Numbered from the stretch's first letter, positions 4,256 to 61,502 are shown. The stretch: 64,000 bases of DNA from GCF_056746865.1 NZ_CM163382.1; one strand, 5' to 3'. Numbers and translations are program-made. The notes: a model not told the origin generated them from the letters alone.

Positions 4256-4332
<77 letters not shown>

Positions 4333-6115: not shown

Positions 6116-6438
6116 GCAAACAAACCCTGGACAAACAGGTGATAACACCCTGCTTAACGGCTTTTCAGGCCCGGCAGGGGAAAAGTGCGGAGGTAGTCAG
6201 ATAAGTAAAATCTACACGCGCGAATAAGTAGACCACAGCAAAGGGAAAAAGTGTGGGGAAAGAGTGTGCACGAAGCACAAATTTACAAAAATGCAAGTTT
6301 GAAAAGAGACTTTAGCGTTACAAAAAGCAGTAAAAAGGGCCAGTTAACTGGCCCAAATTTTACGCGTCATTGTTTATACATTGCGTTGAAGCGTTTGATT
6401 CACACTAAGGCTAAAGCCCAGTAGCTCGCGGCAGATGA

Positions 6439-7647: not shown

Positions 7648-7730
7648 GGCAGTATTCCTGCAGTAATAAAAAGGAAAAATCTCTGCTGACAACCATAACG
7701 AAGTGCACTTTATGCCTGGGGAAAAACGGC

Positions 7731-7761
7731 ATGAAATGCCATCAGAACGGAATGAAATGCA
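7731..7761 (-). promoter_or_regulatory. Direct repeats ATGAAATGC(C/A) spaced 21 bp apart (reverse complement GGCATTTCAT), consistent with the YpdB (LytTR) binding site in the yhjX promoter
   Basis: Repeats at 7731..7740 and 7752..7761 read directly; YpdB control of yhjX is established knowledge. Confidence 0.55.
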
Positions 7762-7875
7762 TTAGTTCAGGAATGAATGACTCGACAATTATTCACCAAA
7801 TTTATTATTTAGTAAGTTAGCACCCACTATCGCCACAACTGTTGTTATCCAATGGTTTCAATTGTATCTATAACG

Positions 7876-8580
7876 TTAAAATCTGGCACTAACCCCCATC
7901 GTATACAGATAGTCGCTATTGTTAGTGGTATTTTCTGTCTGAGATAGCGCCGCATAGGCAGCAATATTTTGATTGAGCAACATATCAGCGCCTACGGTGA
8001 CATCCAGCCAGTTGCCGTTCTGGTTTGTCGCCGTCATCCGGCTCAGGCCTGATTGCGCCTTCCAGATATTCTCGCCAAATTGCTGGTTATAGCTGATTTG
8101 CGCCCAGGGTCGGAGATCGCCAAGCCGGGAGTCAACACGCCAGCCTAAGGTACTCACGCTGGCATGCCATAACGGATCGGCCAGCGTGGTAGTACTGTCG
8201 CCAAACTCGTTATACATCGAGGTGGTTGTGCCATCGTAATGTAATGCCGCGACCGGGCCGGTTGTAACCTGCTCATATAAAGGAAAATTCCAGCCCATAC
8301 TCATACTGCTGGTCACATCCACAGGAGTTTCTTCCGCCAGATTGACTTCCAGTCCCAGCGCCCTTTGGCTACTTTGAATACGTTGCGACAAAATATCGTT
8401 GTAATCAGGTTGATGATCACTATCCCAGGTGTAACGCTCTGTGGAATGTCCGGGTTGCGTATCAACGATATATTCTTGTTGCCAGGCGTAAGCTGTGTTG
8501 AGAAAAAAGGCACTGATTACCACACTCGCCAGCAGGCTTAGCTGCCAGCGACCACCGCTTTTTTTTATGATCATTAACAC
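7876..8580 (-). CDS. yhjY: YhjY, conserved protein with autotransporter-like beta-barrel domain
   Basis: Translation MLMIIKKSGGRWQLSLLASVVISAFFLNTAYAWQQEY... signal peptide plus beta-rich domain ending in F; start may be 2 codons downstream. Confidence 0.85.
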   Translation of the reverse strand: MLMIIKKSGGRWQLSLLASVVISAFFLNTAYAWQQEYIVDTQPGHSTERYTWDSDHQPDYNDILSQRIQSSQRALGLEVNLAEETPVDVTSSMSMGWNFPLYEQVTTGPVAALHYDGTTTSMYNEFGDSTTTLADPLWHASVSTLGWRVDSRLGDLRPWAQISYNQQFGENIWKAQSGLSRMTATNQNGNWLDVTVGADMLLNQNIAAYAALSQTENTTNNSDYLYTMGVSARF

Positions 8581-8731
8581 GACTCCAGGGAAGAGCCGAA
8601 TTCGGCAATATTATTGTCATTGTATGAAGGATATCGGGCATAGTAGCCCTGTATTAAATATTGACTTTTTCACCGATGCGTCAAGAAAAGCGGCTGAAAT
8701 TTTTACGATCGGGTACATAGCGAGGGAAAGT

Positions 8732-9295
8732 ATGGAACGTTGCGGCTGGGTGAGTCAGGACCCGCTTTATATTGCCTACCATGATAATGAATGGGGCGTG
8801 CCTGAAACTGACAGTAAAAAACTGTTCGAAATGATCTGCCTTGAAGGGCAGCAGGCTGGGTTATCGTGGATCACCGTCCTCAAAAAACGCGAAAACTATC
8901 GCGCCAGCTTTCATCAGTTCGATCCGGTGAAGGTGGCTGCAATGCAGGAAGAGGATGTCGAAAGACTGGTACAGGACGCCGGGATTATCCGCCATCGCGG
9001 GAAAATTCAGGCAATTATTGGTAATGCGCGGGCGTACCTGCAAATGGAACAGAACGGCGAACCGTTTGCCGACTTTGTCTGGTCGTTTGTCAATCATCAA
9101 CCACAGGTGACACAAGCCACAACGTTGAGCGAAATCCCTACATCTACGCCCGCCTCCGACGCTCTATCTAAAGCCCTGAAAAAGCGTGGTTTTAAGTTTG
9201 TTGGTACCACAATCTGTTACTCCTTTATGCAGGCATGTGGGCTGGTGAATGATCATGTGGTTGGCTGCTGTTGCTATCCGGGAAATAAACCATGA
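8732..9295 (+). CDS. tag: DNA-3-methyladenine glycosylase I (Tag), 187 aa
   Basis: Translation MERCGWVSQDPLYIAYHDNEWGVPETDSKKLFEMICLEGQQAGLSW...; start at ATG 8732. Confidence 0.95.
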   Translation: MERCGWVSQDPLYIAYHDNEWGVPETDSKKLFEMICLEGQQAGLSWITVLKKRENYRASFHQFDPVKVAAMQEEDVERLVQDAGIIRHRGKIQAIIGNARAYLQMEQNGEPFADFVWSFVNHQPQVTQATTLSEIPTSTPASDALSKALKKRGFKFVGTTICYSFMQACGLVNDHVVGCCCYPGNKP

Positions 9296-9732
9296 TTCGG
9301 GAAGCGCAACGTTCAGAACTCCCCGCGATCCTCGAACTGTGGCTGGAAAGTACAACCTGGGGGCATCCCTTTATAAAAGCGAATTACTGGCGTGATTGCA
9401 TTCCGCTGGTGCGGGATGCCTATCTTGCCAACGCGCAAAACTGGGTCTGGGAAGAAGACGGTAAGTTTCTCGGTTTTGTCAGCATTATGGAAGGCCGATT
9501 TCTGGCTGCAATGTTTGTCGCACCGAAGGCCGTCAGACGCGGTATTGGTAAGGCGCTGATGCAGTATGTGCAGCAGCGCCATCCCCATCTGATGCTGGAG
9601 GTTTATCAAAAAAATCAACCGGCGATAGATTTCTACCATGCGCAGGGTTTTCACATTGTCGACTGCGCATGGCAGGATGAAACCCAACTACCCACCTGGA
9701 TTATGAGCTGGCCGGTGGTTCAAACGCTGTAA
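9292..9732 (+). CDS. yiaC: GNAT family N-acetyltransferase YiaC
   Basis: Translation [33 protein letters not shown]...; overlaps tag stop by 4 bp. Confidence 0.92.
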
Positions 9733-12034
9733 GTGTCAGTTCCGGACCGTTGTATTTTTCCAGCCATGCCAGCGCCGTATTACCCGCACAGCCATTCCCC
9801 AGCCGCGAGCTGGGGAGATCTTTGGTCAGAACGTTCACCGCGCCGTTTTTACAAATACCGTCAGCGGTTAAATCCAGATCCGGCCAAGCCCCTTCATGAA
9901 TACAAATCACGCCAGGTTTAATTCCCTCGCTAATGACCGCTCCGGCAAGAATTTGCCCGCGTGCGTTCCACAACCGAACAATATCGCCATCTTGTATGCC
10001 GCGCGCCTGGGCATCGTCAGGATGAATGGTGACAGGCTCACGATTTGCCACCGCGTACAATTCGCGCAGAGAACTGTAATTCAGCTGGCTGTGCAGACGA
10101 TGTGCCGGATGAGCAGAAAGTACCTGCAACTGTTCCGGTTCGGCATTGCCCTGCCATTCGTCCGGCTCCAGCCACATTGGATGCCCAGGGCAATCCGGAT
10201 AAGCGTAATCGGCAATACGCTGCGAGAAGATTTCAATCTTGCCGCTGGCGGTTTTTAATGGATGCGCCTGCGGATCGCGGCGAAAATCGGCGAAGCGAAT
10301 AAACCGCTCACTGTCCGGGTTTTCCGGCATCTCAATTAACTGGTTGGCTTTCCAGAACTCAGCAAATGGCGGCAATTCAACCTGCTGGCTTGCCCCGCGC
10401 TGCCGGGCAACGTTATAAAACGTTTCCAGCCATTGCAGCTCACTTTGTCCTTCCGTAAACCGCGCATAGCCGCCCTTCTCCCAACGTTCACTCAACTCGG
10501 CAAAGACATCAAAATCATTACGCGCTTCATAACGTGGCGGCACCACTTGTTTCATCGGCACCAGATGCTGATTACTGTAATCACCGGTCATGGTGAGATC
10601 ATTACGCTCAAAAGAGGTAGTCGCAGGCAGAACGATATCCGCGTGTTTCGCCGCAGCCGTCCAGAAGCATTCAGAGATCACCACCAGCTCCGGTTTTTGC
10701 CAGGCACGGATCAGGCGATTGGTATCCTGATGATGAGTAAAGTTGGCACCGCCCGCCCACCAGATAAAACGAATATCCGGGAAATGTCGGTTCATACCGT
10801 TGTGTTGATATGCGCCACCAGGGTTTTCCAGTGCTTCAACAATGCGGGCAACAGGGATTTTATCTACCGCATCGGTGCCGCCAGGCAAGCTGCCCTGCAT
10901 GGAAGAGAGCACCGCAGAACGCCGCGTGGGGTTACCACCATTGGCAAAATGATAAGAAAGACCAAAACCGCCGCCGGGTGTGCCGATTTGCCCCAACATT
11001 GCCGCCAGCGTGACGATCATCCAATGTTTTTGCTCACCAAACTGTTGACGCTGCATTCCCCAGCCAGCCATCAGCATGGTCGTGTTTTGGTGGAAAAGAG
11101 CCGCCAGCTCGCGGATTTTCTCTGCGTTAACCCCACAAATCCCTGCCGCCCATTCGGCGGTTTTGGCTATTCCGTCACTCTCGCCCAGCAAATAAGAGGC
11201 GAAGACGGCATAACCGGTGGTGCAACGCGCCAGAAACGCTTCGTCGTGCCAACCATTTTCCACCAGCGTATAGGCGATCCCCAGCATCAGCGCAACATCG
11301 GTGCCCATGTGCGGTGCCACCCACTCCATTTTATCGCCAAAGAACTCAACGGTTTCCGATCGCATTGGATCAATGCAGATCAGCTTTTTCCCGCTGTCAC
11401 GCAGTGCAGAAAAGTAAGAAAGCCCCTGCTCATCGGATGCATTCCACGCAATTTTCAGCGTATTGAGTGGGTTAGCACTCCACAGCACCACGACATCGCT
11501 ATGTTCCAGCACCAACGGCCAACTGGTTTGCTGTTGATAAACTTCGCTGCCCCCCACGACATACGGCATGATCGCCTGTGCTGCACCGGTCGAATAATCC
11601 CCCAGATGCCCGGTATAACCGCCTGCCAGCGCCATATAGCGTTGTAATAATGTCGAGGCCTTATGCAGCACGCCGTTTGAACGCCAGCCGTAGGAACCAG
11701 CAAAAATCGATGCCGGACCATAAGCCTCACGAATGCGTTTATGTTGTTGGTGAATAAGATCCAGCGCCTCATCCCAACTCACACGAACAAATTCATCCTG
11801 CCCGCGAATGCCTTGCGGTTTTTCCGGTGACGCAAGAAAGCCTTTGCGCACCATTGGAAATCGTACCCGCGTATTGCTGTGAACCTGGTCGCGAACCGCG
11901 CTCTGCAAGGAGTTTTCCATTCCTGTGGTTAACGCGCCACGCGAGCTAAGCACGGTTTCGCCGTCGGTTTCAACCAGCATGGGCCCCCAGTGGGCGGCAG
12001 TCAGAACGGAATATCGTGAGGATGAGTTGGCCAA
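9701..12034 (-). CDS. bisC: Biotin sulfoxide reductase BisC (molybdopterin oxidoreductase)
   Basis: Translation [43 protein letters not shown]...; 777 aa; 3' end overlaps yiaC 3' end convergently by 32 bp. Confidence 0.95.
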
Positions 12035-36776: not shown

Positions 36777-38253
<1,477 letters not shown>

Positions 38254-38370
38254 ACGGATAAGCGTCCATGACAGAACGCCTGGGTAATGTCATTACTCTA
38301 ACCATATTAATAATTCAGGTTGCTGCACATGCAACTTGAATTATGACAAACATAGCCTCAAGGAATAGCT

Positions 38371-38844
38371 ATGAAAAAAATACTTGAAGCAATACTGGCG
38401 ATTAATCTCGCCGTACTTTCCTGTATTGTGTTTATAAACATTATTTTAAGATATGGTTTTCAAACAAGTATTTTATCTGTAGATGAATTGTCGCGTTATT
38501 TATTTGTCTGGTTAACATTTATTGGCGCGATTGTGGCTTTTATGGATAACGCCCACGTTCAGGTCACCTTTCTGGTGGAGAAACTCTCCCCCGCATGGCA
38601 GCGACGAGTCGCTCTGGTTACCCATTCCTTAATCTTATTTATTTGTGGCGCACTGGCCTGGGGCGCAACGCTAAAAACAATTCAGGACTGGAGCGATTAT
38701 TCACCGATCCTCGGTTTGCCTATCGGCCTGATGTATGCCGCTTGTCTGCCCACCAGCCTCGTTATCGCATTCTTTGAACTGCGTCATTTATATCAACTCA
38801 TCACGCGTAGCAATTCTCTAACGTCGCCACCGCAAGGAGCTTAA
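38371..38844 (+). CDS. yiaM: TRAP transporter small permease (DctQ-like)
   Basis: Translation [47 protein letters not shown]... Confidence 0.93.
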
Positions 38845-38846
38845 TC

Positions 38847-40124
38847 ATGGCTGTGCTGATTTTTCTGGGCTGTCTGTTGGGTGGTATTGCTATCGGTTTG
38901 CCTATTGCCTGGGCACTGTTGTTGTGCGGGGCGGCGTTAATGTTCTGGCTGGAGATGTTTGATGTCCAGATCATGGCACAAACGCTGGTGAACGGAGCCG
39001 ACAGCTTCTCCCTGCTGGCGATTCCGTTCTTTGTGCTGGCGGGTGAAATCATGAATGCGGGCGGCTTGTCAAAACGCATTGTTGACCTGCCGATGAAACT
39101 GGTGGGGCATAAACCAGGCGGGCTGGGCTACGTCGGCGTGCTGGCGGCTATGATTATGGCAAGCCTTTCTGGTTCTGCCGTTGCGGATACCGCCGCCGTT
39201 GCCGCTCTACTGGTGCCGATGATGCGCAGCGCCAACTACCCGGTCAACCGGGCGGCGGGGCTGATTGCCTCTGGCGGCATTATCGCGCCAATTATTCCCC
39301 CTTCCATTCCGTTTATTATTTTCGGCGTTTCCAGCGGATTATCCATCAGTAAGCTGTTTATGGCGGGCATTGCCCCTGGCATGATGATGGGCGCAACGCT
39401 GATGCTTACCTGGTGGTGGCAGGCCAGTCGTCTTAACTTACCCCGCCAGCAAAAAGCGACGATGCAGGAAATCTGGCACTCTTTTGTCTCCGGTATCTGG
39501 GCGCTGTTTCTTCCAGTCATCATTATTGGCGGGTTTCGCTCCGGTCTGTTTACCCCTACCGAAGCCGGGGCCGTTGCTGCTTTCTATGCGCTGTTTGTCG
39601 CCACAGTTATTTACCGTGAAATGACCTTCGCCACACTTTGGCATGTGCTCATTGGCGCAGCGAAAACGACCTCAGTGGTGATGTTTCTGGTGGCCTCGGC
39701 ACAAGTTTCCGCCTGGCTGATCACCATTGCTGAACTGCCGATGATGGTTTCTGATTTACTGCAACCGCTGGTCGATTCACCGCGTCTGCTGTTTATCGTC
39801 ATTATGGTGGCTATCCTGATTGTCGGCATGGTCATGGATTTAACGCCGACGGTATTAATTCTTACCCCGGTATTAATGCCTTTAGTTAAAGAGGCAGGAA
39901 TCGATCCGATTTATTTCGGTGTCATGTTTATCATTAACTGCTCAATCGGCTTAATTACACCGCCTATCGGTAATGTGCTTAACGTTATTTCAGGGGTGGC
40001 AAAACTCAAATTCGATGATGCAGTCAGAGGCGTTTTCCCTTACGTCCTGGTTTTATATTCATTATTAGTCGTATTTGTTTTTATTCCCGATCTCATCATC
40101 CTCCCTTTGAAATGGATTAATTAA
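38847..40124 (+). CDS. yiaN: TRAP transporter large permease (DctM-like)
   Basis: Translation MAVLIFLGCLLGGIAIGLPIAWALLLCGAALMFWLEMFDVQIMAQ...; 425 aa. Confidence 0.95.
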   Translation: MAVLIFLGCLLGGIAIGLPIAWALLLCGAALMFWLEMFDVQIMAQTLVNGADSFSLLAIPFFVLAGEIMNAGGLSKRIVDLPMKLVGHKPGGLGYVGVLAAMIMASLSGSAVADTAAVAALLVPMMRSANYPVNRAAGLIASGGIIAPIIPPSIPFIIFGVSSGLSISKLFMAGIAPGMMMGATLMLTWWWQASRLNLPRQQKATMQEIWHSFVSGIWALFLPVIIIGGFRSGLFTPTEAGAVAAFYALFVATVIYREMTFATLWHVLIGAAKTTSVVMFLVASAQVSAWLITIAELPMMVSDLLQPLVDSPRLLFIVIMVAILIVGMVMDLTPTVLILTPVLMPLVKEAGIDPIYFGVMFIINCSIGLITPPIGNVLNVISGVAKLKFDDAVRGVFPYVLVLYSLLVVFVFIPDLIILPLKWIN

Positions 40125-43282: not shown

Positions 43283-44135
43283 TCATCCGTTAGGTATTTA
43301 TGAAAAAGCGCTGGCGAAAGATCTCTCCTGGCCTGAGCGGCTGGTGCTGGCGAAAAGCTGCAGTTTTGATTTTGTCGAAATGTCGGTGGATGAAACCGAC
43401 GAACGTTTGTCACGCCTTGACTGGAACGCCGCACAACGTGCTTCGCTGGTCACTGCGATGATCGAAACGGGTGTTGCCATTCCGTCGATGTGCCTGTCCG
43501 CACATCGTCGCTTTCCCTTTGGCAGCCGGGACAAGGCGGTGCGCGAACGGGCGCGGGAAATCATGAGTAAAGCGATTCGCCTGGCGCGCGATCTCGGCAT
43601 TCGCACCATTCAACTGGCGGGTTATGACGTCTATTACGAAGACCACGACGAAGGCACCCAGCAACGTTTTGCTGAAGGGCTGGCGTGGGCGGTCGAACAG
43701 GCGGCGGCATCACAAGTAATGCTGGCGGTGGAGATTATGGATACCGCGTTTATGAACTCCATCAGCAAATGGAAAAAGTGGGACGAGATGCTCGCCTCGC
43801 CGTGGTTCACCGTCTACCCGGACGTCGGCAACCTCAGCGCCTGGGGCAATGATGTTCCCGCCGAACTGAAACTGGGCATTGACCGTATTGCCGCAATCCA
43901 TCTGAAAGACACCCTGCCAGTCACCGGGCAAAATCCCGGACAGTTCCGTGATGTGCCGTTTGGCGAAGGCTGCGTCGATTTCGTTGGCATCTTCAAAACG
44001 CTGCATGAACTGAACTATCGCGGTTCTTTCCTGATTGAGATGTGGACCGAAAAAGCCAAAGAGCCGGTGCTGGAGATTATTCAGGCGCGGCGCTGGATTG
44101 AAGCGCGTATGCAGGAGGCTGGATTTATATGTTAG
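43275..44135 (+). CDS. sgbU: L-xylulose-5-phosphate 3-epimerase, 286 aa
   Basis: Translation (V/M)[44 protein letters not shown]...; inferred GTG start at 43275 inside sgbH 3' end (ORF track starts 30 codons earlier). Confidence 0.9.
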
Positions 44136-44824
44136 AGCAACTGAAAGCCGACGTGCTGGCGGCGAATCTGGCGCTTCCCGCTCACCATCTGGTGACGTTC
44201 ACCTGGGGCAATGTCAGCGCGGTAGACGAAACGCGGCAATGGATGGTAATCAAACCTTCCGGCGTCGAGTACGACGTGATGACCGCCGACGATATGGTGG
44301 TGGTTGAGATAGCCAGCGGTAAGGGGGTGGAAGGCAGCAAAAAGCCCTCGTCCGACACGCCAACGCATCTGGCGCTCTACCGTCGCTATGCCGAAATCGG
44401 TGGCATTGTGCATACCCACTCGCGCCACGCGACCATCTGGTCACAGGCCGGGCTGGATCTCCCCGCCTGGGGCACCACGCACGCCGATTACTTCTATGGA
44501 GCCATCCCCTGCACGCGCCTGATGACCGCAGAAGAGATCAACGGCGAGTATGAATACCAGACTGGCGAAGTGATCATTGAAACCCTCGAAGAACGCGGCA
44601 GGAGTCCAGCGCAAATCCCGGCGGTTCTGGTACATTCTCACGGCCCGTTCGCCTGGGGAAAAAATGCCGCCGATGCAGTGCATAACGCCGTGGTGCTGGA
44701 AGAGTGTGCCTATATGGGCCTGTTCTCGCGTCAGCTTGCGCCGCAGCTCCCTGCGATGCAAAACGAACTGTTAGATAAGCACTACCTGCGTAAGCATGGG
44801 GCCAATGCCTATTACGGGCAGTAA
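44129..44824 (+). CDS. sgbE: L-ribulose-5-phosphate 4-epimerase
   Basis: Translation [49 protein letters not shown]...; class II aldolase fold; 231 aa. Confidence 0.95.
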
Positions 44825-44832
44825 TCCCTCAC

Positions 44833-44854
44833 GCCGGGGCTTCATTGCCCCGGC
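44833..44854. terminator. Bidirectional hairpin terminator between convergent sgbE and the AraC-family regulator
   Basis: gccggggcttcattgccccggc perfect 8-bp stem. Confidence 0.65.
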
Positions 44855-44855
44855 A

Positions 44856-45671
44856 CTACGAATTGATATGTTCCTTGCTGTAACGTCGCTTCCACGCAGC
44901 TGGCGTTAAACCGGTGTGTTTGCGAAAAATCTGTCGGAAATAGCCAACGTCATTAAACCCGCACAACGCAGCCACTTCAGTGAGCGATCGCGCTTCGCTA
45001 ATTAACAGCTTTTCGGCTTCGCGCACTCGCTGGCGATGAATTGCTTCTGTTAACGTCAGATGAAACACCCGCCGGTAGACGCGCCCAAGATAATCGGCAT
45101 TGCAGTACAGCTCGCGGGCTAAAAGCGCCGTGGAAAGCGGGCGATGATATTGCGTGCGGATCAGTTTCTGCGCTTTCCAGGCAAGCGTGGTACCTGCGGC
45201 ATCGGCCTGTTCATCAAGACGCGCGTCACGGGTGAGTTGCTGCAAAATCAGCAGCACAATAAACTCCAGCGCCGGAGTGCGTTGATGCTTTTCCTGTTCG
45301 CTTAAGAACTGGCGAAACAGGGCCACCAGCGCCTGCCGATCGGCAACCTTTGTTTGTTGCGGCACGCTAAGATGAGTGAGCCAGCGCGGGTCGCTATCCG
45401 GCGCTTTAACCTCAAAATGCAGCCAGTAAAATTTGAGATCGGCGGGAAAATCCTCTACCCCAACATGCTGTCGGTTCGGCCAGAGTAATAAACTCTCTCC
45501 CGCATCGACCAGAAATATCCGCTCTTCTTCCTGAATCGCTAATCGACCTTTTTCGACAAAGATAATTTCCCATGACTCCAGCCGCCTTGCCGGATGCCTC
45601 CCTACGCCACGGGAAATAAATAATCCACCATTTTGCACTTTAATCGGTAACGTCATGGATAATTCGAGCAT
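44856..45671 (-). CDS. AraC-family transcriptional regulator (N-terminal cupin-type sugar-binding domain, C-terminal HTH); accessory cassette
   Basis: Translation ...FLVDAGESLLLWPNRQHVGVEDFPADLKFYWLHF...LTEVAALCGFNDVGYFRQIFRKHTGLTPAAWKRR; alternative start at 45656. Confidence 0.85.
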   Translation of the reverse strand: MLELSMTLPIKVQNGGLFISRGVGRHPARRLESWEIIFVEKGRLAIQEEERIFLVDAGESLLLWPNRQHVGVEDFPADLKFYWLHFEVKAPDSDPRWLTHLSVPQQTKVADRQALVALFRQFLSEQEKHQRTPALEFIVLLILQQLTRDARLDEQADAAGTTLAWKAQKLIRTQYHRPLSTALLARELYCNADYLGRVYRRVFHLTLTEAIHRQRVREAEKLLISEARSLTEVAALCGFNDVGYFRQIFRKHTGLTPAAWKRRYSKEHINS

Positions 45672-45896
45672 TGATATGTAATTTCCCGCTTATTCATTAA
45701 TGATTAAACACATTACCTTTTGATTATTAATCAAAAACATTAATTTCACCTGATCCAATTCACACTTTTAAATTCAGGTCGGAATCGTCACCTTTTTTTA
45801 CTCTTTTCTCGCCTTGTTGATATTCCCGTTCACGGCAGAATTAATCAGGTCATTGCAATAAAACTAAAAATTGCTCCCTATTCACGAGGAATATCT
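45672..45896. promoter_or_regulatory. AT-rich divergent promoter region of AraC-family regulator and GPH transporter operon, with near-palindromic ttgattattaatcaa elements
   Basis: Read directly; markedly lower GC than flanking core genes. Confidence 0.5.
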
Positions 45897-47297
45897 ATGA
45901 CCTCTACACCGATTACTACCGCTGATATCGCTAAAGGTAAAATTGACGATGCGTTATCTGTACGGGAAAAAATAGGCTACGGCCTGGGTGACGCAGGCGG
46001 CACCGTAATAACTTGCCTGATCATGAACTTTCTCACCTTTTTCTACACCGACGTTTTTGGCTTAACTCCGGCGCTGGTCGGCACGCTGTTTATTGCACTG
46101 CGCGTGTTTGATGCCATCTCCGACCCGGTGATGGGCGTCATTGCCGACCGGACGCAAAGTCACTGGGGGCGCTTTCGTCCGTGGCAGTTATGGATTGCCA
46201 TTCCCATCGGCATTATCGGCATCCTGACGTTCACCGTGCCAGATGCCAGCATGGGAGTAAAAATCGCCTGGGCGTTCGGCACTTACCTGCTCCTTTCAGT
46301 CGGTTATACCGCCATCAACGTGCCGTACTGCGCGCTGATCAACACCATGACCACCCGCCACAATGAAGTGATCTCCTGCCAGTCCTGGCGATTCGTTCTC
46401 TGCGGTGTAGCGGGATTTCTGGTTTCGGTAGGCTTACCGTGGATGGTGGATCTCTTCGGTCAGGGTAATGCCGCGCGCGGCTATCAACTGGGCGTCGGCG
46501 TGCTGTGCGCCATCGCTGTGGTGATGTTCCTGTGCTGTTTCTTCTGGGTTCGTGAACGGGTACCACTCTCCACAATGGGGAAATTTACCCTGCGCGAACA
46601 TCTTGCCGGGCTGCGAAACAACGACCAACTGCTGCTGATGCTGGTCATGTCTTTCCTGCTGATTAACGTCTTTAATATTCGCGGCGGTGGGTATATGTAC
46701 TTCATTACCTACGTCTTACAAGGCAGTACGGGCTACACGTCGCTGTTCTTCACTATGGTCACCTTCGCCTCCATTATCGGCTCGGTGATTGTCAGCCCGT
46801 TAACGCGACGTTTCGATACCGTCAAAATTTACTACTACACCAACCTGCTCCTCGCTGCGCTGGCGGTGTTGATGTGGTTCCTGCCCTCTGGCCCGGCTTA
46901 TCAAACGCTGTGGCTGGCGGTGATCCTCGGTAATGGCGTGATTCTTGGCTTCACATTGCCACTGCACTTCTCATTGATGGCCTTTGCCGATGACTACGGC
47001 GAGTGGAAAACCCGCGTACGTTCTTCCGGCATGAACTTCGCCTTCAATCTGTTTTTCATCAAGCTGGCCTGGGCCTCCAGCGCCGGGATCATCAGCCTGC
47101 TGTTTATTTTTGTCGCCTACCAGCCAGGCGTGGAAAACCAGACCGCCAGTTCGCTTGGCGGGATCACAGCAATGGAAACATTGCTGCCTGCGCTATTCCA
47201 CCTGCTGCTGGCGATGGCGATCCGCTTTTGCAAACTCAATAACCCTATGATGTCACGCATTGCTAGCGACCTGCGTCAGCGTCATGTACAGCCTTAA
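45897..47297 (+). CDS. Glycoside-pentoside-hexuronide (GPH) family sugar:cation symporter (MelB/YicJ-like)
   Basis: Translation [56 protein letters not shown]... 12-TM; ATG 45897 preceded by GAGGA. Confidence 0.88.
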
Positions 47298-47307
47298 GGA
47301 GCACAAG

Positions 47308-49272
47308 ATGAACATTTCGGAAGTCGATCTGCATAAACTGACGGTCAGCGATCCGTTCCTCGGTCAGTACCAACAACTGGTCCGCGATGTGGTGATTCCT
47401 TATCAGTGGGACGCCTTGAACGATCGTATCCCAGAAGCGGAACCCAGCCATGCGATTGAAAACTTTCGCATTGCCGCAGGACTGCAAGACGGTGAATTTT
47501 ACGGGATGGTGTTTCAGGACAGCGACGTCGCCAAATGGCTGGAAGCGGTAGCCTGGTCGCTGTGCCAGAAGCCGGATGCCGAACTGGAAAAAACTGCTGA
47601 CGAGGTGATTGAACTGATCGCCTCCGCCCAGTGCGAAGATGGCTATCTCAATACTTACTTTACGGTAAAAGCGCCCGAAGAACGCTGGAGCAATCTGGCG
47701 GAGTGTCATGAACTTTACTGCGCCGGTCATCTGATTGAAGCCGGAGTCGCCTTCTTCCAGGCCACGGGCAAGCGGCGCTTGCTGGAAGTGGTTTGCCGTC
47801 TGGCCGATCATATCGACAGCGTATTTGGTCCAGGTGAAAGTAAGTTACACGGTTATCCTGGTCACCCGGAAATTGAACTGGCACTAATGCGCCTGTATGA
47901 AGTGACCGAAGAGCCGCGCTACCTGGCGCTGACGAACTATTTTGTCGAACAGCGTGGTGCGCAACCGCACTATTACGACCAGGAATATGAAAAGCGCGGG
48001 CAGACCTCGCACTGGCACACCTACGGCCCGGCGTGGATGGTGAAAGATAAAGCCTACAGCCAGGCGCATTTGCCCATCGCACAGCAACAAACCGCCATCG
48101 GACATGCAGTACGCTTTGTCTACCTGATGACTGGCGTCGCACATCTGGCGCGTTTAAGTCACGATGAAAGCAAGCGTCAGGATTGCCTGCGGCTGTGGAA
48201 CAATATGGCCCAGCGTCAGTTATATATTACCGGCGGCATTGGCTCACAAAGCAGCGGTGAAGCGTTCAGCAGCGATTACGATCTGCCGAATGACACGGTA
48301 TACGCTGAAAGTTGCGCCTCCATCGGCCTGATGATGTTTGCCCGGCGAATGCTGGAAATGGAAGGCGACAGTCAATATGCCGATGTGATGGAGCGCGCGC
48401 TGTACAACACTGTGCTCGGCGGCATGGCACTGGATGGCAAACATTTCTTCTATGTGAATCCGCTGGAAGTACATCCAAAATCGCTGAAATTCAACCATAT
48501 CTACGATCACGTTAAACCGCTCCGCCAGCGTTGGTTTGGCTGCGCTTGTTGTCCTCCAAATATCGCCCGCGTACTGACCTCGATTGGTCATTATCTCTAC
48601 ACGCCGCGTGAAGATGCGTTGTATATCAACATCTACGCAGGAAACAGCATGGAAGTGCCGGTAGAAAATGGCACGTTGTGCCTGCGGGTTAGCGGGAACT
48701 ATCCGTGGCAGGAACAGGTGACAATTGCGGTTGAATCGCCCCAGCCGGTGCGTCATACGCTGGCTTTACGTCTGCCGGACTGGTGCACACAGCCGCAGAT
48801 CATATTGAATGGGGAAGAGGTCGAGCAGGATATTCGTAAAGGGTATTTGCACATTACCCGCGAATGGCAGGAGGGCGATACGCTGAATCTGACTTTGCCG
48901 ATGCCGGTACGCCGCGTTTACGGTAACCCTCTGGTGCGTCACGTCGCCGGAAAAGTGGCGATTCAGCGCGGCCCGCTGGTGTATTGCCTGGAACAGGCCG
49001 ACAACGGCGAGTCACTGCATAACCTGTGGCTGCCCGCCGATGCGCCATTTACGACCTTTGAAGGCAAGGGATTGTTCAGCCATAAGATCTTAATCCAGGC
49101 ACCGGGTTACCGGTATGAACAGAGCAATCCAGAGCAGCAACCGCTGTGGCATTACGACAGTGCGCCAGCCAAACGCCAGCCGCAAACTCTGACGTTTATC
49201 CCGTGGTTTAGCTGGGCTAACCGGGGTGAAGGCGAAATGCGGATCTGGGTGAATGAGGAAACCAGCGCATGA
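47308..49272 (+). CDS. GH127 family (DUF1680) glycoside hydrolase, putative beta-L-arabinofuranosidase
   Basis: Translation MNISEVDLHKLTVSDPFLGQYQQLV...; motifs SGEAF, YAESCAS and WFGCACCPPN in spacing matching the HypBA1 Glu/Glu-x-Cys/Cys-Cys catalytic and Zn site as recalled; ATG 47308 preceded by AAGGAG, 10 bp after transporter stop. Confidence 0.85.
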   Translation: MNISEVDLHKLTVSDPFLGQYQQLVRDVVIPYQWDALNDRIPEAEPSHAIENFRIAAGLQDGEFYGMVFQDSDVAKWLEAVAWSLCQKPDAELEKTADEVIELIASAQCEDGYLNTYFTVKAPEERWSNLAECHELYCAGHLIEAGVAFFQATGKRRLLEVVCRLADHIDSVFGPGESKLHGYPGHPEIELALMRLYEVTEEPRYLALTNYFVEQRGAQPHYYDQEYEKRGQTSHWHTYGPAWMVKDKAYSQAHLPIAQQQTAIGHAVRFVYLMTGVAHLARLSHDESKRQDCLRLWNNMAQRQLYITGGIGSQSSGEAFSSDYDLPNDTVYAESCASIGLMMFARRMLEMEGDSQYADVMERALYNTVLGGMALDGKHFFYVNPLEVHPKSLKFNHIYDHVKPLRQRWFGCACCPPNIARVLTSIGHYLYTPREDALYINIYAGNSMEVPVENGTLCLRVSGNYPWQEQVTIAVESPQPVRHTLALRLPDWCTQPQIILNGEEVEQDIRKGYLHITREWQEGDTLNLTLPMPVRRVYGNPLVRHVAGKVAIQRGPLVYCLEQADNGESLHNLWLPADAPFTTFEGKGLFSHKILIQAPGYRYEQSNPEQQPLWHYDSAPAKRQPQTLTFIPWFSWANRGEGEMRIWVNEETSA

Positions 49273-49343
49273 TGCGACGCTTAACGCGTCTTATCAGTAT
49301 CAACATATCGGTGCGGTTGCCCGCTAACCATCGAAACGCGAGA

Positions 49344-49754
49344 TTAAACGCCCGGCAATACACGCCGGGCAGCTTCTGCCAGAAACGCACTTCTGTTGGC
49401 GTAGTCTGGGTTATTGCGCACGTAGGTATCAATCTTGTTCAGTAACCTTTTCGGCATCGTAATATTGATACGTTCAGCCCGACCTTCGAACTGATTCATA
49501 TTGATATCCACCAGCAACCATTGCCCGCCAATAAAGTCCTGCGCACGCTGGACCAGATGTGTTTCCACAGAGCCTGGAAGCGGCAACTCTTCATTCATCT
49601 CGCATAAGGTTTCGAAGTGCGCGACCAGTGCACTTCGCGCATCCTGGAAAGCGTTGTCCAGCGTATCACCAGCAAAATAACAGCCTGGAACATCAGGGAA
49701 AAAACCGCTGGCGCTGCCGTCAGGATCACTGTGGATATAGGCGGGATAAAACAT
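49344..49754 (-). CDS. hicB: HicB-family antitoxin (RNase H-like N-domain plus C-terminal ribbon-helix-helix)
   Basis: Translation MFYPAYIHSDPDGSASGFFPDVPGCYFAGDTLDNAFQDARSALVAHFE...NITMPKRLLNKIDTYVRNNPDYANRSAFLAEAARRVL. Confidence 0.8.
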   Translation of the reverse strand: MFYPAYIHSDPDGSASGFFPDVPGCYFAGDTLDNAFQDARSALVAHFETLCEMNEELPLPGSVETHLVQRAQDFIGGQWLLVDINMNQFEGRAERINITMPKRLLNKIDTYVRNNPDYANRSAFLAEAARRVLPGV

Positions 49755-49770
49755 ATTGCCTCCTGAAATT

Positions 49771-49956
49771 TTAAAATGTTAAACCAGCCTGACGCCCAAT
49801 TTGCGCCAGCGTACCGGGCTTAATATCTTTTTTAGGGTGCGGAACCGTCACCAGACCCGGATGAACAGGGTGGCGGAACTGATGATGACTGCCACGGGTT
49901 CGAATATGTTCCCAGCCATGCTGCTTCAGGATGGCGATCACGTCTGCACTTTTCAC
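49771..49956 (-). CDS. hicA: HicA-family toxin (YcfA-like mRNA interferase), 61 aa
   Basis: Translation MKSADVIAILKQHGWEHIRTRGSHHQFRHPVHPGLVTVPHPKKDIKPGTLAQIGRQAGLTF; 16 bp upstream of hicB on same strand. Confidence 0.8.
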   Translation of the reverse strand: MKSADVIAILKQHGWEHIRTRGSHHQFRHPVHPGLVTVPHPKKDIKPGTLAQIGRQAGLTF

Positions 49957-50182
49957 ATCCCTGCCCTTCCATGATTATACACACGATACACACACAATTA
50001 GCGATAACAATCACGATAGCGCGATTTATATGGGCCGTCAGGGGGATAAAGTTGACTCAGGAATGCCACTCGGAAGAAGAATAACGGTGTGCAGTAATTG
50101 GTAGAAAATATGCGAGGAGACTCGTAATTAAGTTCAATCAATATTCAGTCATTCAAGACGTAGACATTTGAATTGATAAAAC

Positions 50183-50202
50183 GCGCAAACGTCGCATCAG
50201 GC
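50183..50202. repeat. REP-like element (gcgcaaacgtcgcatcaggc) immediately downstream of aldB
   Basis: Matches REP consensus core. Confidence 0.5.
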
Positions 50203-50233
50203 AATGAATACCCAATGCGACCAGCTTCTTATA

Positions 50234-51772
50234 TCAGAACAGCCCCAACGGTTTATCCGAGTAGCTCACCAGCAGGCACTTGGTTTGCTGGTAATGCTCA
50301 AGCATCATCTTATGGGTTTCGCGTCCGATGCCCGACTGTTTGTAGCCGCCAAACGCCGCATGTGCCGGGTAAGCGTGATAACAGTTGGTCCACACGCGTC
50401 CAGCCTGAATGCCGCGCCCCATCTTATAGGCCAGATTACCGTTGCGGCTCCAGACACCCGCGCCCAGGCCATATTGTGTGTCGTTCGCCAGCTCCAGCGC
50501 TTCTTCCATCGTTTTGAAGGTGGTCACCGCCAGCACCGGACCAAAAATTTCTTCCTGGAACACGCGCATATTATTCTGACCAAACAGAATCGTCGGTTCG
50601 AGGTAGTAGCCGTCTTTCAGTTCTCCTTCCAGCAGCTTGCGCCGCCCGCCGGTGAGCACGTCTGCGCCCTCTTTTTTACCAATATCAATGTAGTTGAGGA
50701 TGGTTTCCAGTTGCCCGTGAGAAACCTGCGCGCCCATTTGCGTCACGCTGTCGAGCGGGTTACCGCTACGAATACTTTCAACACGGCGGATGGCGCGTTC
50801 CATGAAGCGTTCGTAGATAGACTCCTGCACTAAAGCACGGCTTGGACAGGTGCAAACTTCGCCCTGGTTAAAGGCAAACAGTGCAAAGCCTTCCAGCGCT
50901 TTATCAAAAAAGGCATCTTCTTCATCCATCACGTCAGCAAAGAAGATATTTGGCGATTTGCCGCCCAGCTCCAGCGTCACCGGAATAATGTTTTGCGTGG
51001 CGTATTGCATAATTTGTTGACCCACTTCCGTTGAGCCGGTAAACGCCACTTTGGCGATGCGTTTCGAGGTCGCCAGATATTCGCCAATTTCCCCACCTGC
51101 ACCGTTGACCACGTTCACCACGCCCGGCGGCAGTAAATCACCGACGATTTCCATTAGCAGCAGTACAGAAAGCGGGGTAAGACGTGCGGGTTTCAGCACC
51201 ACACAGTTGCCCGCCGCCAGCGCGGGAGCCATTTTCCAGCTCGCCATCAGCAGCGGGAAGTTCCACGGAATAATCTGCCCCACCACGCCTAACGGTTCGT
51301 GGAAGTGATAAGCCACAGTTTCGCTATCCACTTCACTAATACCGCCTTCCTGCGCCCGAATACACGAGGCAAAATAGCGGAAATGGTCAATCGCCAGCGG
51401 TACATCAGCAGCACTGGTTTCGCGAATGGGTTTGCCGTTATCCCAGGTTTCAGCCGTCGCTAACAGTTCAAGGTTTTGTTCCATTCGATCGGCAATCTTA
51501 AACAGAATCGCCGCGCGATCCTGCACCGAGGTATGCGCCCATTTATCTTTCACTTTGTGCGCAGCATCCAGCGCCAGATCGATGTCTCGTTTGCCCGAAG
51601 ACGCCACTTCGCACAGCCGCTGCCCGGTCACCGGCGTCAGGTTCTGGTAATACTCGCCGTCGGCAGGGGCTACCCATTCGCCGCCAATAAAGTTGTCGTA
51701 GCGGGCTTTTAACTTGAGGGGGAAACCATACTCGCCGGGCTTAATCTGTGCTGAAGGGGGATTATTGGTCAT
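50234..51772 (-). CDS. aldB: Aldehyde dehydrogenase B, 512 aa
   Basis: Translation [48 protein letters not shown]...; start at ATG 51770..51772. Confidence 0.96.
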
Positions 51773-51972
51773 GATCGTCTCCTTGCGGTGTGAGGTATAA
51801 CAAGGGTAGACGTGACTGGCGAAATCTTCACCAGTCGGTAACAGCTTTACGACGGCTATCACGAATTTACGGGCAAGGGTTACAGAGATAACTAAAACTC
51901 TCTCAAAAATCGCAAATTTTGAGATAGTTTAAAAAATGGCTGACAATTAGCCAGCCATTGGGGGAATGATGA

Positions 51973-53124
51973 TTACATCGCAGCGCGATAAATTGCCACA
52001 ATCTCTTCGTGAGTTGCCTGAATCGGGTTAGTAAACCCACACGCATCTTTCAGGGCATTGGTGGCCAGTACCGCGAAATCCTCTTCTTTCACGTTCAGGT
52101 CACGCAGGCCTGCCGGGATATTCACTTTCTTCGCCAGTTCACGGATGGCATTGATGCACGCTTCTGCGCCTTCCGCGTCATTTTTGCCTGTCACGTTAAC
52201 GCCCATGGCAGCAGCACAGTCACGCAGACGCGCAGCAGCGACTTTGCTGTTGAACACCTGAACGTGTGGCAGCAGAACGGCATTACATACACCATGTGGC
52301 AGGTTGTAGAAACCGCCCAGCTGGTGCGCCATCGCATGAACATAACCAAGAGATGCGTTGTTGAATGCCATGCCAGCGAGGAACTGGGCATAAGCCATTG
52401 CTTCACGCGCTTTAGCATTGCTGCCATCTTCAACGGCTAACGGCAGATTTTCGGCAATCATGGTCACCGCTTTCAGTGCGCAAGCGTCAGTGATCGGCGT
52501 TGCAGCAATTGAAACATACGCTTCAATAGCGTGTGTTAAGGCATCCATACCGGTTGCGGCGGTCAGTGACTTCGGCATACCGATCATCAGAGAGGAGTCA
52601 TTGACAGAAAGCAACGGAGTGACATGTTTATCAACAATCGCCATTTTGATATGACGCGCTTCGTCAGTGATGATGCAGAAACGGGTCATTTCAGAGGCCG
52701 TACCCGCCGTGGTATTGATGGCGATCATCGGCAGCTGCGGTTTTGCAGAGCGGTCAACGCCTTCGTAATCGCGAATATCGCCGCCATTGGCTGCCACTAG
52801 CGCAATACCTTTTGCGCAGTCGTGCGGAGAACCACCGCCTAAGGAGATCACGCTATCGCAATTATTTTCTTTAAGTAATTTCAAACCTGCGGCGACGTTT
52901 TCCGTGGTTGGGTTAGGTTGGGTGCCATCATAAATAACGCTAAAAATATTGCGTTCTTCCAGTGCTTTTTGCACATCACCCGCCATACCTAATTTCGTTA
53001 ACATATTGTCAGTGACAATTAAGGTACGGGTAAATCCATAATCTGCCATCATATTCATTGCATCATTCAATGAATCAGCACCAATAACATTCACGGAAGG
53101 AATAAAAAAGGTTGAAGCTGCCAT
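51973..53124 (-). CDS. yiaY: Iron-containing alcohol dehydrogenase YiaY
   Basis: Translation [50 protein letters not shown]...; 383 aa. Confidence 0.95.
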
Positions 53125-57322: not shown

Positions 57323-58459
57323 TCAATGATCCAAATAAAGATAATGCATCCAGCTGGTCATTCTTAGCAGCACTTTCCGCATCACCGAAACATGGCTGAA
57401 ATGGTCGGAGTAAACCGCCACCTGGGCGTAGATGCCGTCGGGTAAGGCATCGATATCATCGTTAGGGTCCAGTTCAATGGTTCCCAGCACACCGTCCGTG
57501 CCGGGCACGACCGTTAATGATTGCAATACCCCCTGCGCCTGATAAGAACCGCCTGGCACGACAGGTAAAATACTGGTCAGTTTGCCGTGGAACACCTGCC
57601 CAGGTAGCGCGTTAAACACCACTTCCGCATCATCGCCGGGTTTCAGACGTAACAGCGAGTTTTGCCGAAATTGGGCGACAATTTGCCGTTTTTGCTCGGG
57701 GATGAAAACCATCACCGGACGCAACGGCAAGGCAGCTGCGTATGTACCTGGGCGGATCAGTACCTGAGTAACGTAGCCATTGCTCGGCGCGCGAATGACA
57801 GTCTGCTCAAGGTTATATTTTGCTTCAGTAAGTTGCGCTCTTAAGCTCACAATCTGCGATTGCTCGCCGTTAACCATACTATCGAGCTGGCTCTGGATCT
57901 GCGCCTGCTCCGCCACCGAGCCTTTCACCAGCGCATCCTGCGCGAGGAAATTTTGCCGCGCATCGTCGATGTCACGTTCCGAGAACGGATTCACCGCCGC
58001 CTGGCTGCCTTTCAGATAACGTTGATAATTTTTAAACAGACGGTCGCGCTCCGCTGAAACCTGGGTGGTGTTGGCCTGCGCTTCAGTGAGCTGCGCGCGC
58101 AGCGTCTTTATATTATGCGTCGCCGTCATCAGGTCAGCCTGAAGTCTGTCAACTCGCGCCTGGTAACGAACCGGGTCGAGTTTAAAAAGCACCTCGCCCT
58201 TTTGAATAAGCTGATTATTTTTGTCGGTGACTTCAGTAACAATTCCCGTCACCTGTGGCGTGATGGGGATCGCTATCACTGCCTTTTGCGCGGTAAAAGT
58301 GTAAGGGTGGTTGTAGTTCATCAACAAAATCAAACCACTCACCAGAAACACGCCTCCCAGCGCCGCCGTCGCCAGCGTCCACTGATTCACCGGAATGCGG
58401 AAGATTTTAAAGACCGCCCACGCCAGCGCCACGTAAGTTAAAACAATCAATAGATCCAT
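57323..58459 (-). CDS. yibH: HlyD-family membrane fusion-type inner membrane protein YibH
   Basis: Translation [52 protein letters not shown]...; 378 aa. Confidence 0.9.
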
Positions 58460-58461
58460 AT

Positions 58462-58824
58462 TTAGATCTCCGGGAACGTGGAATAGTCAGTCTTTTTCTC
58501 GGCGGCGAGTTGGTGCTCCAGCCGGGAAATTCGGTCAGAAAGTGCGGCGATTTCCGGGTCAGTCGCTTTCTCTTGCGACGCAACATGTGACTGCATGCCC
58601 CAGCCGCGCTCCGGTTGATAGAGCGTCGCCCAGATCCACAGGAACGGCCAGATAACATGTAGAGTAAACAGGCTCACCCAGCCCGCCGTATGAATAGCGT
58701 CGGCATGGGGATGGTTGCGCTTTTTGGCAATCAGATAAGGGATGTCATGTATCGCGATGATTCCATAAAAAATCACCAGAAAGACGAAGATCAGCACTCC
58801 CAACGCGAAATAGTTTAGAAACAT
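58462..58824 (-). CDS. yibI: Small inner membrane protein YibI (DUF3302), 120 aa
   Basis: Translation [53 protein letters not shown]... Confidence 0.9.

Positions 58825-61274: not shown

Positions 61275-61502
<228 letters not shown>

Follow-up and report, generated by a model that had tools for sequence, protein, structure and literature searches.

Between the conserved genes sgbE and aldB, the sequence analyzed here carries genes that do not match those of Escherichia coli K-12. This raises the question of whether the two contents are alternative cassettes, swapped by homologous recombination in the flanks as first predicted, or products of some other process. We examined the interval (positions 44825 to 50233) within a window of 64,000 nt from GCF_056746865.1 NZ_CM163382.1. 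The window contains no Clermont markers, and its sole tRNA gene is proK (4256-4332).

Gene content of the interval

Open reading frames and Pfam matches gave the order sgbE, AraC-family gene, GPH symporter, GH127, hicB, hicA and aldB, with the following genes:

44129-44824, plus strand: sgbE (L-ribulose-5-phosphate 4-epimerase), conserved left flank; ORF, Pfam Aldolase_II 6.5e-50
44856-45671, minus strand: AraC-family regulator with ligand-binding and HTH domains; Pfam HTH_18 2.1e-19, AraC_binding 7.9e-09
45897-47297, plus strand: GPH (glycoside-pentoside-hexuronide, MFS_2) cation symporter; Pfam MFS_2 3e-73
47308-49272, plus strand: GH127 (DUF1680) beta-L-arabinofuranosidase-like glycoside hydrolase; three GH127 Pfam domains
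49344-49754, minus strand: hicB, predicted antitoxin; Pfam HicB_lk_antitox PF15919 8e-36; PDB 6G1N 2.8e-25, 4P78 1.6e-21
49771-49956, minus strand: hicA, predicted toxin; Pfam HicA_toxin PF07927 1.9e-23, residues 4-59; PDB 4C26 1.2e-16, 6G26
50234-51772, minus strand: aldB (aldehyde dehydrogenase B), conserved right flank; Pfam Aldedh 5.6e-159
about 57323-58824, minus strand: yibH-yibI, outside the interval; 69% DNA identity to yiaV/yiaW, annotation of the collinear genome L008

The names of both flanking genes are also backed by the RefSeq annotation of L003, an identical locus. The GPH symporter and AraC-type regulator genes are transcribed divergently, with a putative promoter region between them at 45672-45896, and the symporter scored 330.8 bits against NCBIfam TIGR00792 (gph), exceeding the cut-off of 231. 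The GH127 protein has the catalytic, middle and C-terminal domains of its family (PF07944 1e-111, PF20736 2.3e-23, PF20737 1.9e-25), and its closest solved structure is 4QJY, a Geobacillus GH127 beta-L-arabinofuranosidase (E 3.8e-235, residues 11-650). The ESCAS and CACCPPN stretches, predicted by analogy with HypBA1 to hold catalytic or Zn-binding residues, are identical in the alignment with 4QJY. Judged from these matches, the regulator, symporter and hydrolase are predicted to form an inducible unit that takes up and hydrolyzes oligosaccharides of plants, beta-L-arabinofuranosyl or related ones.

In HicAB type II toxin-antitoxin systems, HicA stops growth through mRNA cleavage and HicB neutralizes it. 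The hicA gene found here lies upstream of hicB in the same orientation, with a 16-nt gap, and the proteins are 61 aa (HicA) and 136 aa (HicB) long, as would be expected of the type II pair that we predict. A terminator scan called an intrinsic terminator whose hairpin (49349-49371, minus strand) is made up of the final hicB codons. Searches of NCBIfam and PADLOC returned no match for HicA, HicB or the small ORF described below, and only a weak REase match for an extra gene annotated as a type I restriction endonuclease in genome L007.

K-12 MG1655 (locus L001) is annotated in RefSeq with ysaC', ysaD', yiaT, yiaU, yiaV and yiaW between sgbE and aldB. The original statement that K-12 has yiaT-yiaW at this position was therefore correct, and K-12 does not share the window's gene content. 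The two are not wholly different, as the original prediction had it, since homologous blocks remain: by blastn, homology to K-12 runs to 44959, returns at 48981-49170 and at 49315-49427, and then continues from 50174 on. The original description of yibH/yibI as paralogues of yiaV/yiaW, present once elsewhere in the window, also proved accurate.

Alleles, junctions and relics

To place the window's arrangement among others, we took junction-specific counts in 5,426 complete E. coli genomes, which revealed six major alleles and some rarer ones:

K-12 type: 2,462 genomes
GH127 plus yiaTUVW: about 1,241 genomes
GH127 only (REP-REP junction): 567 genomes
window type: 489 genomes
empty: 481 genomes, retaining just the 23-nt hicB terminator hairpin
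complete (AraC-MFS-GH127-yiaTUVW-sORF-hicBA): 16 genomes, such as L008, which has all ten genes

About 170 of the 5,426 genomes were assigned to no allele, and 49 gave no match. Counts of individual modules agree with these figures: yiaTUVW occurs in 3,722 genomes, close to 16 + 1,241 + 2,462; hicBA occurs in 505, which equals 489 + 16; and the GH127 core occurs in 2,313. The strong polymorphism that alignment of multiple genomes had been expected to reveal is thus a real and well-populated presence/absence polymorphism in E. coli. The modules are not mutually exclusive, since AraC-MFS-GH127 adjoins yiaTUVW in about 1,257 genomes (among them L002, L005, L008, L091 and L092), yiaTUVW accompanies hicBA in 16, and each allele holds truncated pieces of genes found in the other.

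These pieces and the junctions between them lie at the following positions:

44833-44854, no strand: stem-loop between the convergent sgbE and AraC-family genes; sequence, fold, blastn against L001 and L005
44960-48980, no strand: 4,021-bp segment, apparently cleanly deleted in the K-12-type allele; blastn and junction sequences, same junction in 2,462 genomes
49270-49297, plus strand: palindromic REP unit that overlaps the stop codon of GH127; sequences, blastn-short, pattern search
49310-49318, no strand: apparent deletion junction of the window, GGTGC/GGTT (slash at the join); aligned junctions of the window, L007, L002 and L008, same in 489 genomes
49315-49347, plus strand: small-ORF relic, last ~30 nt including the stop codon; 30/33 nt identical to L008 11475-11507
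49428-50173, no strand: 5' three-quarters of hicB, hicA and its upstream region; blastn, sequences, census
50174-50233, no strand: REP-like unit and strong palindrome downstream of aldB; blastn, fold -26 kcal/mol, z -4.1

In K-12, window positions 44000-44959 and 48981-49170 are joined directly, at L001 2460/2461. By K-12 annotation and blastn, the pseudogene ysaC' (b4648) is the last 104 nt of the AraC-family gene and ysaD' (b4649) is 190 nt of GH127 (window 48981-49170); these remnants are ends of genes that are intact in the window, and they have no product names in the RefSeq feature table. GH127 is also decaying by point mutation: L004 carries a frameshift in it, and IAI39 an internal stop.

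Further right, window 49315-49427 matches L001 6265-6366, where the 3' end of hicB persists in K-12 as 48 nt with one mismatch. We considered whether this relic, at 83-85% identity, might be very old, and rejected this reading because the differences cluster in the hairpin and a 12-nt gap, outside those 48 nt. In place of segment 49428-50173, the K-12-type and GH127 plus yiaTUVW alleles have 90 bp with REPs. The small ORF, which is conserved, encodes a 108-aa membrane protein; its neighbors in the complete allele are yiaW and hicB, it overlaps hicB tail-to-tail, and it is intact in L008 and L092. K-12 has a 47-aa in-frame derivative of it. Relative to the complete allele, about 3.8 kb is missing at the window junction (yiaT-yiaW and most of the small ORF; L008 ~7664-11478), and the left side of this junction is one arm of a hairpin downstream of yiaT, for which the evidence spans only 8-10 nt. 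Genome L092 has GH127, yiaTUVW and an intact small ORF, together with a hicB cut exactly at the K-12 junction (CGTAGGT/TTAAAACG) and an intact relic hairpin. Such intermediates form a stepwise deletion series that ends in K-12.

The original prediction placed a perfect hairpin terminator at the left junction. The hairpin at 44833-44854 is indeed perfect (8-bp stem GCCGGGGC, 6-nt loop; -20.6 kcal/mol, z = -5.3), but it has no T-run and was not called by the terminator scan, and it is not a breakpoint relative to K-12 because homology continues through it to 44959. Only O55/O157 (L005) breaks within it, a yiaJ'-sgbE deletion ending there at window 44844; the break of the empty allele lies nearby, at 44824.

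At the right junction, the suspected REP-like element (50183-50202) does belong to a palindromic repeat with dispersed copies. A search with a fixed-spacing REP pattern gave a single window site, and we instead identified REPs by short-word blastn, which gave window copies at 2642-2708, 4147-4166, 49270-49297, 50174-50209 and 61330-61414 and at least seven sites within 85 kb in K-12. The copy at 49270-49297 shares its REP type with 50174-50209, in inverted orientation, and other alleles have one additional REP (about 61 bp) at its position. Homology with all other alleles resumes on the right at 50174-50233, and the GH127-only junction in L004 is a REP-REP hybrid. REP elements therefore sit at module borders, and dispersed palindromic REP/BIME units occur at breakpoints (49270-49297, 50174-50209 and the L004 junction), although neither the K-12 4,021-bp deletion nor the window 3.8-kb deletion is REP-REP.

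Origin of the alleles

Taking the observed breakpoints, relics, intermediates and allele counts together, we favor, with a probability of roughly 0.78, a reading in which the slot between sgbE and aldB holds dispensable chromosomal genes, and erosion of one larger array has taken separate courses in separate E. coli lineages. The fullest array that survives in E. coli, which would stand for the starting point, comprises sgbE, the AraC regulator, GPH symporter, GH127, yiaT, yiaU, yiaV, yiaW, the small membrane ORF, hicB, hicA and aldB. The window allele would be this array minus about 3.8 kb, lost in a single illegitimate deletion whose site is a GGT microhomology immediately past the post-GH127 REP. 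The path to K-12 may have run, in succession, through truncation of hicBA, a 156-nt in-frame loss within the small ORF, further decay of the hicB relic and, finally, the loss of 4,021 bp, cut cleanly between a point within the AraC gene and one within GH127. A REP-to-REP deletion would have left the GH127 module alone, and the empty allele would have lost nearly everything but the 23-nt hairpin. We infer that the direction was deletion rather than insertion, with a single event per junction, and this polarity comes from parsimony and relics rather than from a genome phylogeny. The 16 genomes with the complete allele apparently form one lineage with the most divergent flanks, and this allele could in principle be a recombinant.

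Exchange of whole alternative cassettes through recombination in sgbE and aldB, in the manner of O-antigen or capsule loci, is an unlikely account of these data. Some observations do suit it. The flanks show divergence in mosaic blocks, typical of homologous recombination, and their divergence from K-12 is roughly double that of the window background. L002 (GH127 plus yiaTUVW) and L007 (GH127, hicBA and the nuclease gene) are nearly identical around different middle contents (98.3% on the left, 99.0% in AraC-MFS, 98.6% in aldB), and hicBA is 99.2-99.7% identical between alleles whose flanks are only 93-97% identical. Cassette exchange does not explain why the supposed alternatives stand together in so many genomes, why they hold each other's fragments, why a stepwise series exists, or why the breakpoints fall within interval genes and REPs and not in the flanks. 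As the origin of the alleles it is largely refuted. Of the original proposal, the polymorphism, the REP borders and, from the mosaic divergence, recombination in the flanks stand; the left junction and the notion of exclusive cassettes do not. Homologous recombination appears, from the identity patterns, to spread alleles secondarily, atop vertical descent.

It is also improbable that GH127-hicBA-aldB was ancestral, that yiaTUVW was inserted later before the small ORF, and that the window lost only the 5' part of that ORF. Yokenella has GH127-hicBA-aldB and Enterobacter kpr-6 has GH127-sORF-hicBA-aldB, as this order of events would predict, and in several genera hicBA has yiaTU(VW) on its opposite side, so modules have moved relative to each other at least once. 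However, the left breakpoint in the window falls at exactly the nucleotide that bounds yiaTUVW-specific sequence on the left (ending GTCGGTGC), which the insertion model must treat as coincidence and the deletion model need not. Moreover, all 28 of the 28 intact-sORF E. coli genomes examined or listed have it in a yiaW-type context, with none seen without yiaW, and the closely related Citrobacter keeps the order of E. coli, as GH127-yiaTUVW or as GH127-yiaTU-sORF. Because other genera have sORF-hicBA immediately downstream of GH127 and ahead of yiaT (Pseudocitrobacter L027, Enterobacter/Lelliottia L051/L060/L064, Enterobacter kpr-6 L050, Yokenella L049), a GH127-sORF-hicBA ancestor, lacking yiaTUVW from the start, could be an alternative source of the window's sORF tail. 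Escherichia whittamii and Escherichia sp. E1V33 were rejected as outgroups for the right half because synteny breaks downstream of GH127, where they have unrelated genes (DUF3829, TPR, HSP90-like ATPase, fdhD).

A broader proposal is that the GH127-aldB gap is an old, family-wide variable slot of Enterobacteriaceae in which yiaTU(VW), the small membrane ORF and hicBA are lost, truncated or permuted from genus to genus, with hicBA acting as an addiction module that guards the GH127 unit against deletion. This is offered only tentatively, as a long shot. All 505 of the 505 hicBA-positive genomes keep at least the 3' end of GH127, adjoining or upstream, and the GH127 core occurs in ~37% of hicBA-negative genomes, an association that is fully confounded by shared ancestry.

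Finally, acquisition of AraC-MFS-GH127-hicBA as a horizontally transferred genomic island in a K-12-like backbone, for which one might cite the block's absence from K-12 and a toxin-antitoxin pair of a kind common on mobile elements, is highly improbable and is refuted by the internal K-12 remnants and by synteny of sgbHUE-AraC-MFS-GH127 ... aldB-yiaY-selB across Citrobacter, Klebsiella, Enterobacter, Kluyvera, Leclercia, S. enterica diarizonae and others (72-88% protein identity). Composition argues the same way: the GC profile, which had been suggested as a check, was native, with interval genes (GC 0.51-0.55, GC3 0.54-0.68) resembling their neighbors (window GC 0.51; sgb genes 0.55-0.60), and ORF, Pfam and tRNA scans of 44825-50233 found no integrase, transposase, tRNA or border direct repeats. 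In the 5,426 genomes, hicBA occupies one fixed locus, always chromosomal and in single copy. A plasmid origin for it was dropped, the plasmid search having matched no true plasmids, only mislabelled 4.9-Mb chromosomes and weak partial sequences.

Comparison with known systems

Differential deletion of one older ten-gene array is ordinary accessory-gene decay, and the sgbE-aldB variation is thus of an already known kind, with no new biological mechanism indicated. It cautions that a fixed-position difference from K-12 can resemble cassette replacement and yet be differential decay of an ancestral array, of which K-12 is the most eroded common form. Decay also accounts for ysaC', ysaD' and the unannotated hicB relic. 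Our literature searches on the genes of the interval found nothing on its polymorphism and one relevant item, a strain construct for which the ysaC-ysaD gap served as a neutral site of insertion. Pangenome studies have flagged the GH127 sugar-utilization unit as clade-dependent and linked to invasive IBD isolates (PMC11879602; bioRxiv 10.1101/2021.10.19.464957), and allele frequencies can now be given for it.

The hydrolase resembles HypBA1 of Bifidobacterium longum (PDB 3WKW) in its full-length match (E 5.5e-153), three GH127 domains and aligned Cys-rich motifs, but the bifidobacterial gene belongs to an ABC transporter cluster, whereas a GPH symporter and AraC-type regulator accompany it here. 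Among GH127 beta-L-arabinofuranosidases its substrate specificity is only putative, given a sub-threshold NCBIfam match to aceric acid hydrolase (456 bits, cut-off 950). The toxin-antitoxin pair is like Burkholderia pseudomallei HicAB (6G26/6G1N) and Yersinia pestis HicA3B3 (4P78) in its domains, toxin-first gene order and small sizes, and the K-12 hicAB pair is of a different subfamily (6HPB covers only HicB residues 1-66, E 1.2e-05). As a whole, the locus resembles E. coli plasticity or indel regions, such as the yibF-yibH rhsA slot in the same window, in its fixed position, conserved flanks, several alleles and border REPs. It differs from them in that its content is native and old and changes mainly by loss, without mobility genes.

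Gene content of the sgbE-aldB interval

The interval at 44825-50233, which is bounded exactly by the stop codons of sgbE (44822-44824) and aldB (50234-50236, minus strand), had been proposed as a hotspot at which alternative cassettes replace one another. It contains five genes:

44856-45671, minus: AraC-family regulator
45897-47297, plus: GPH/MFS_2 symporter, divergent from the AraC-family regulator
47308-49272, plus: GH127 protein
49344-49754, minus: hicB
49771-49956, minus: hicA

The feature is genuine, and the observation behind the original prediction was accurate. RefSeq annotates yiaT, yiaU, yiaV and yiaW between sgbE and aldB in K-12 MG1655, as had been stated; yibH/yibI are indeed single copy (~57.3-58.8 kb, 69% identity to yiaV/yiaW); and the REP-like sequence at 50183-50202 belongs to a dispersed palindrome of the REP type, which recurs in the window and in K-12. 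The predicted hairpin at 44833-44854 (8-bp stem, 6-nt loop) exists and is strong by fold, with no T-run. Relative to K-12 it is not the left junction it was taken for, since blastn homology with K-12 runs past it, 104 nt into the AraC gene, ending at 44959. All five genes had GC and GC3 values similar to those of adjoining genes, and the interval contained no integrase, transposase or tRNA.

A series of alleles consistent with deletion

We surveyed 5,426 complete E. coli genomes using junction-specific megablast queries, counting places that covered at least 80% of the query; about 170 genomes fell outside the assigned alleles.

Genomes carrying each arrangement
AraC-MFS-GH127 core intact: 2,313
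K-12 deletion junction: 2,462
yiaTUVW present: 3,722
hicBA present (chromosomal and single copy in every case): 505
Window-like direct GH127-hicB join: 489
Additional nuclease gene (HSDR_N domain) ahead of aldB: 189 of those 489
Complete allele (yiaW, then intact hicBA): 16
GH127-aldB via REP-REP hybrid: 567
Empty allele (sgbE nearly abutting aldB): 481

The counts are mutually consistent (505 = 489 + 16; 3,722 nearly equals 16 + 1,241 + 2,462), and therefore GH127 and yiaTUVW co-occur in ~1,257 genomes, including L002, O55:H7 (L005) and IAI39 (L091).

The complete array, in strain Z0117EC0005 (L008), runs sgbE, AraC, MFS, GH127, yiaT, yiaU, yiaV, yiaW, a small ORF (sORF, 108 aa), hicB, hicA, aldB. 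We put at nearly four in five the probability that, by a mechanism other than the one predicted, the variation arose through differential deletion of a native array, later shuffled by recombination. In K-12 (L001 2460/2461), 44959 is joined directly to an internal GH127 piece, 48981-49170 (blastn and junction sequence), and RefSeq annotates the AraC-gene and GH127 pieces as the pseudogenes ysaC and ysaD. Because these pieces abut, we infer that K-12 in all likelihood lost 4,021 bp, from the AraC gene into GH127, by clean deletion of a cassette formerly present. Right of yiaW, K-12 keeps the 3' end of hicB (48 nt with one mismatch) beside a degraded terminator hairpin; next comes a 90-bp filler that contains REPs, where the window has 49428-50173.

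Strain EC26 (L092) carries GH127, yiaTUVW and an intact sORF, with hicB cut off at precisely the K-12 junction and the relic hairpin still perfect. L002-type alleles further show a 156-nt in-frame sORF deletion and a 12-nt relic loss, to which K-12 adds its 4,021-bp deletion. Stepwise decay would thus run from the complete array through EC26 and L002-type alleles to K-12 as endpoint. Some cassette-keeping lineages have GH127 inactivated by point mutation, namely a frameshift in GN03449 (L004 4809-6778) and an internal stop in IAI39 (L091 6849-8828).

Relative to the complete array, the window lacks ~3.8 kb, a stretch that starts just past the REP following GH127 and stops 30 nt short of the sORF end. 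Its junction, GGTGC/GGTT at 49314/49315, has on its left GTCGGTGC, one arm of a hairpin found after yiaT in other alleles, and on its right the sORF tail (30/33 nt); the same junction occurs in L007, a window-type allele with the nuclease gene. On the simplest reading, a single deletion from a complete-type allele would have produced it. In the empty allele (L006), an intact 23-nt terminator hairpin of hicB survives between the two flanking genes, sgbE and aldB, which indicates that this allele too descends from one with hicBA.

The sORF leaves a relic in the window (49315-49347) and is present in K-12 as a truncated 47-aa form (L001 ~6165-6308):

L008 11181-11507, plus: sORF, predicted small membrane protein, conserved, 104-108 aa

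It lies tail-to-tail with hicB, their stop codons overlapping by 4 nt, and its protein had no match in Pfam, NCBIfam or PADLOC. Homologues with 50-58% identity are located at the equivalent site in Citrobacter, Kluyvera, Superficieibacter, Enterobacter and Pseudocitrobacter. Only 28 of the 5,426 E. coli genomes have it intact; most others carry the in-frame deletion.

Recombination and depth across Enterobacteriaceae

The proposed exchange of cassettes stands insofar as homologous recombination moves segments between backgrounds, but the alleles themselves would be products of deletion. Pairwise mismatch profiles were block-like, hicBA was 99.2-99.7% identical among alleles differing by 3-7% in their flanks, and L002 and L007 had nearly identical flanks around different middles; these patterns therefore suggest that recombination spreads segments here. 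Window-K-12 identity was ~97.7% over most of the 64 kb and 92-96% in yiaK-sgbE and aldB-yiaY (92-95% at 37001-39000 and 51001-53000); the yiaK-S/sgb operon and aldB-yiaY carry unusually divergent haplotypes.

We used the GH127 protein to scan the species representatives of GTDB, then ran tblastn with the L008 proteins. Synteny is kept both to the left (sgbHUE-AraC-MFS-GH127) and to the right (aldB-yiaY-selB) of the GH127-aldB gap in Citrobacter, Klebsiella, Enterobacter, Kluyvera, Leclercia, Lelliottia, Pseudocitrobacter, S. enterica diarizonae and others, which rules out recent horizontal gain of the window's genes. The gap itself was variable in all of them: it could be empty or hold yiaTUVW, yiaTU, sORF alone, hicBA alone, sORF-hicBA or hicBA-yiaTU. 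The sORF/hicBA unit comes before yiaT in Pseudocitrobacter, Enterobacter and Lelliottia, the reverse of the E. coli order, and such arrangements cast some doubt on polarity in E. coli. The sister species E. whittamii lacks sgbE (L010 7507-7513; exactly window 44125-44820) and has DUF3829, TPR and HSP90-like ATPase genes, then fdhD/fdoG, after GH127 (L010 12106-17515; also L009), so synteny with aldB is broken there.

Neighbouring variation and known systems

Variation at sgbE-aldB is an ordinary phenomenon for E. coli. Several strains (L004-L007, including O55:H7) carry a ~1.3-kb Fic-family gene between aldB and yiaY, missing from the window (51773-51972), K-12, L002 and L008; it is a second indel polymorphism directly adjoining the interval. 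In O55:H7 (strain DEC5A; L005 3868-4010) and in O157:H7, whose hits have the same coverage pattern, the yiaK-sgbE operon is deleted entirely, from inside the IclR-type regulator gene to the sgbE hairpin loop (window 44844), and the AraC-family gene therefore directly adjoins the yiaJ/plaR remnant. The nuclease gene (L007 7985-9064, plus strand) lies within an AT-rich 1.4-kb insert in the hicA-aldB gap of 189 genomes and encodes a 359-aa protein, annotated "type I restriction endonuclease", with only an N-terminal HSDR_N domain; no methylase or specificity partner was found near it. The window also lacks K-12's IS150 (hokA/mokA-sokA gap; 16273/16313) and 8.2-kb rhsA-yibA-yibJ-yibG island (yibF-yibH gap; 57289/57322), and carries an element absent from K-12:

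2710-4166: IS3-family insertion sequence, ~1.46 kb, with minus-strand ORFs at 2744-3466 and 3571-4101

It adjoins tRNA-Pro(CGG) (4256-4332), has REP-unit halves on either side (2692-2708, 4147-4166), and is presumably similar to elements of the IS1397 type, whose insertion targets are REP loops.

We found no paper describing the sgbE-aldB allele series itself. One study describes GH127 as an accessory CAZyme whose presence in E. coli depends on the clade (bioRxiv 10.1101/2021.10.19.464957), and another reports that it co-segregates with invasiveness in IBD isolates (PMC11879602). Every gene family in the interval is already known and has RefSeq annotation. Among solved structures, the GH127 protein aligns along its full length with a Geobacillus GH127 beta-L-arabinofuranosidase (4QJY; E 3.8e-235), and it also matches Bifidobacterium HypBA1 (3WKW; E 5.5e-153). 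The nearest structures to the window's HicB and HicA are Burkholderia and Yersinia HicAB, whereas their relationship to K-12 HicB is weak.
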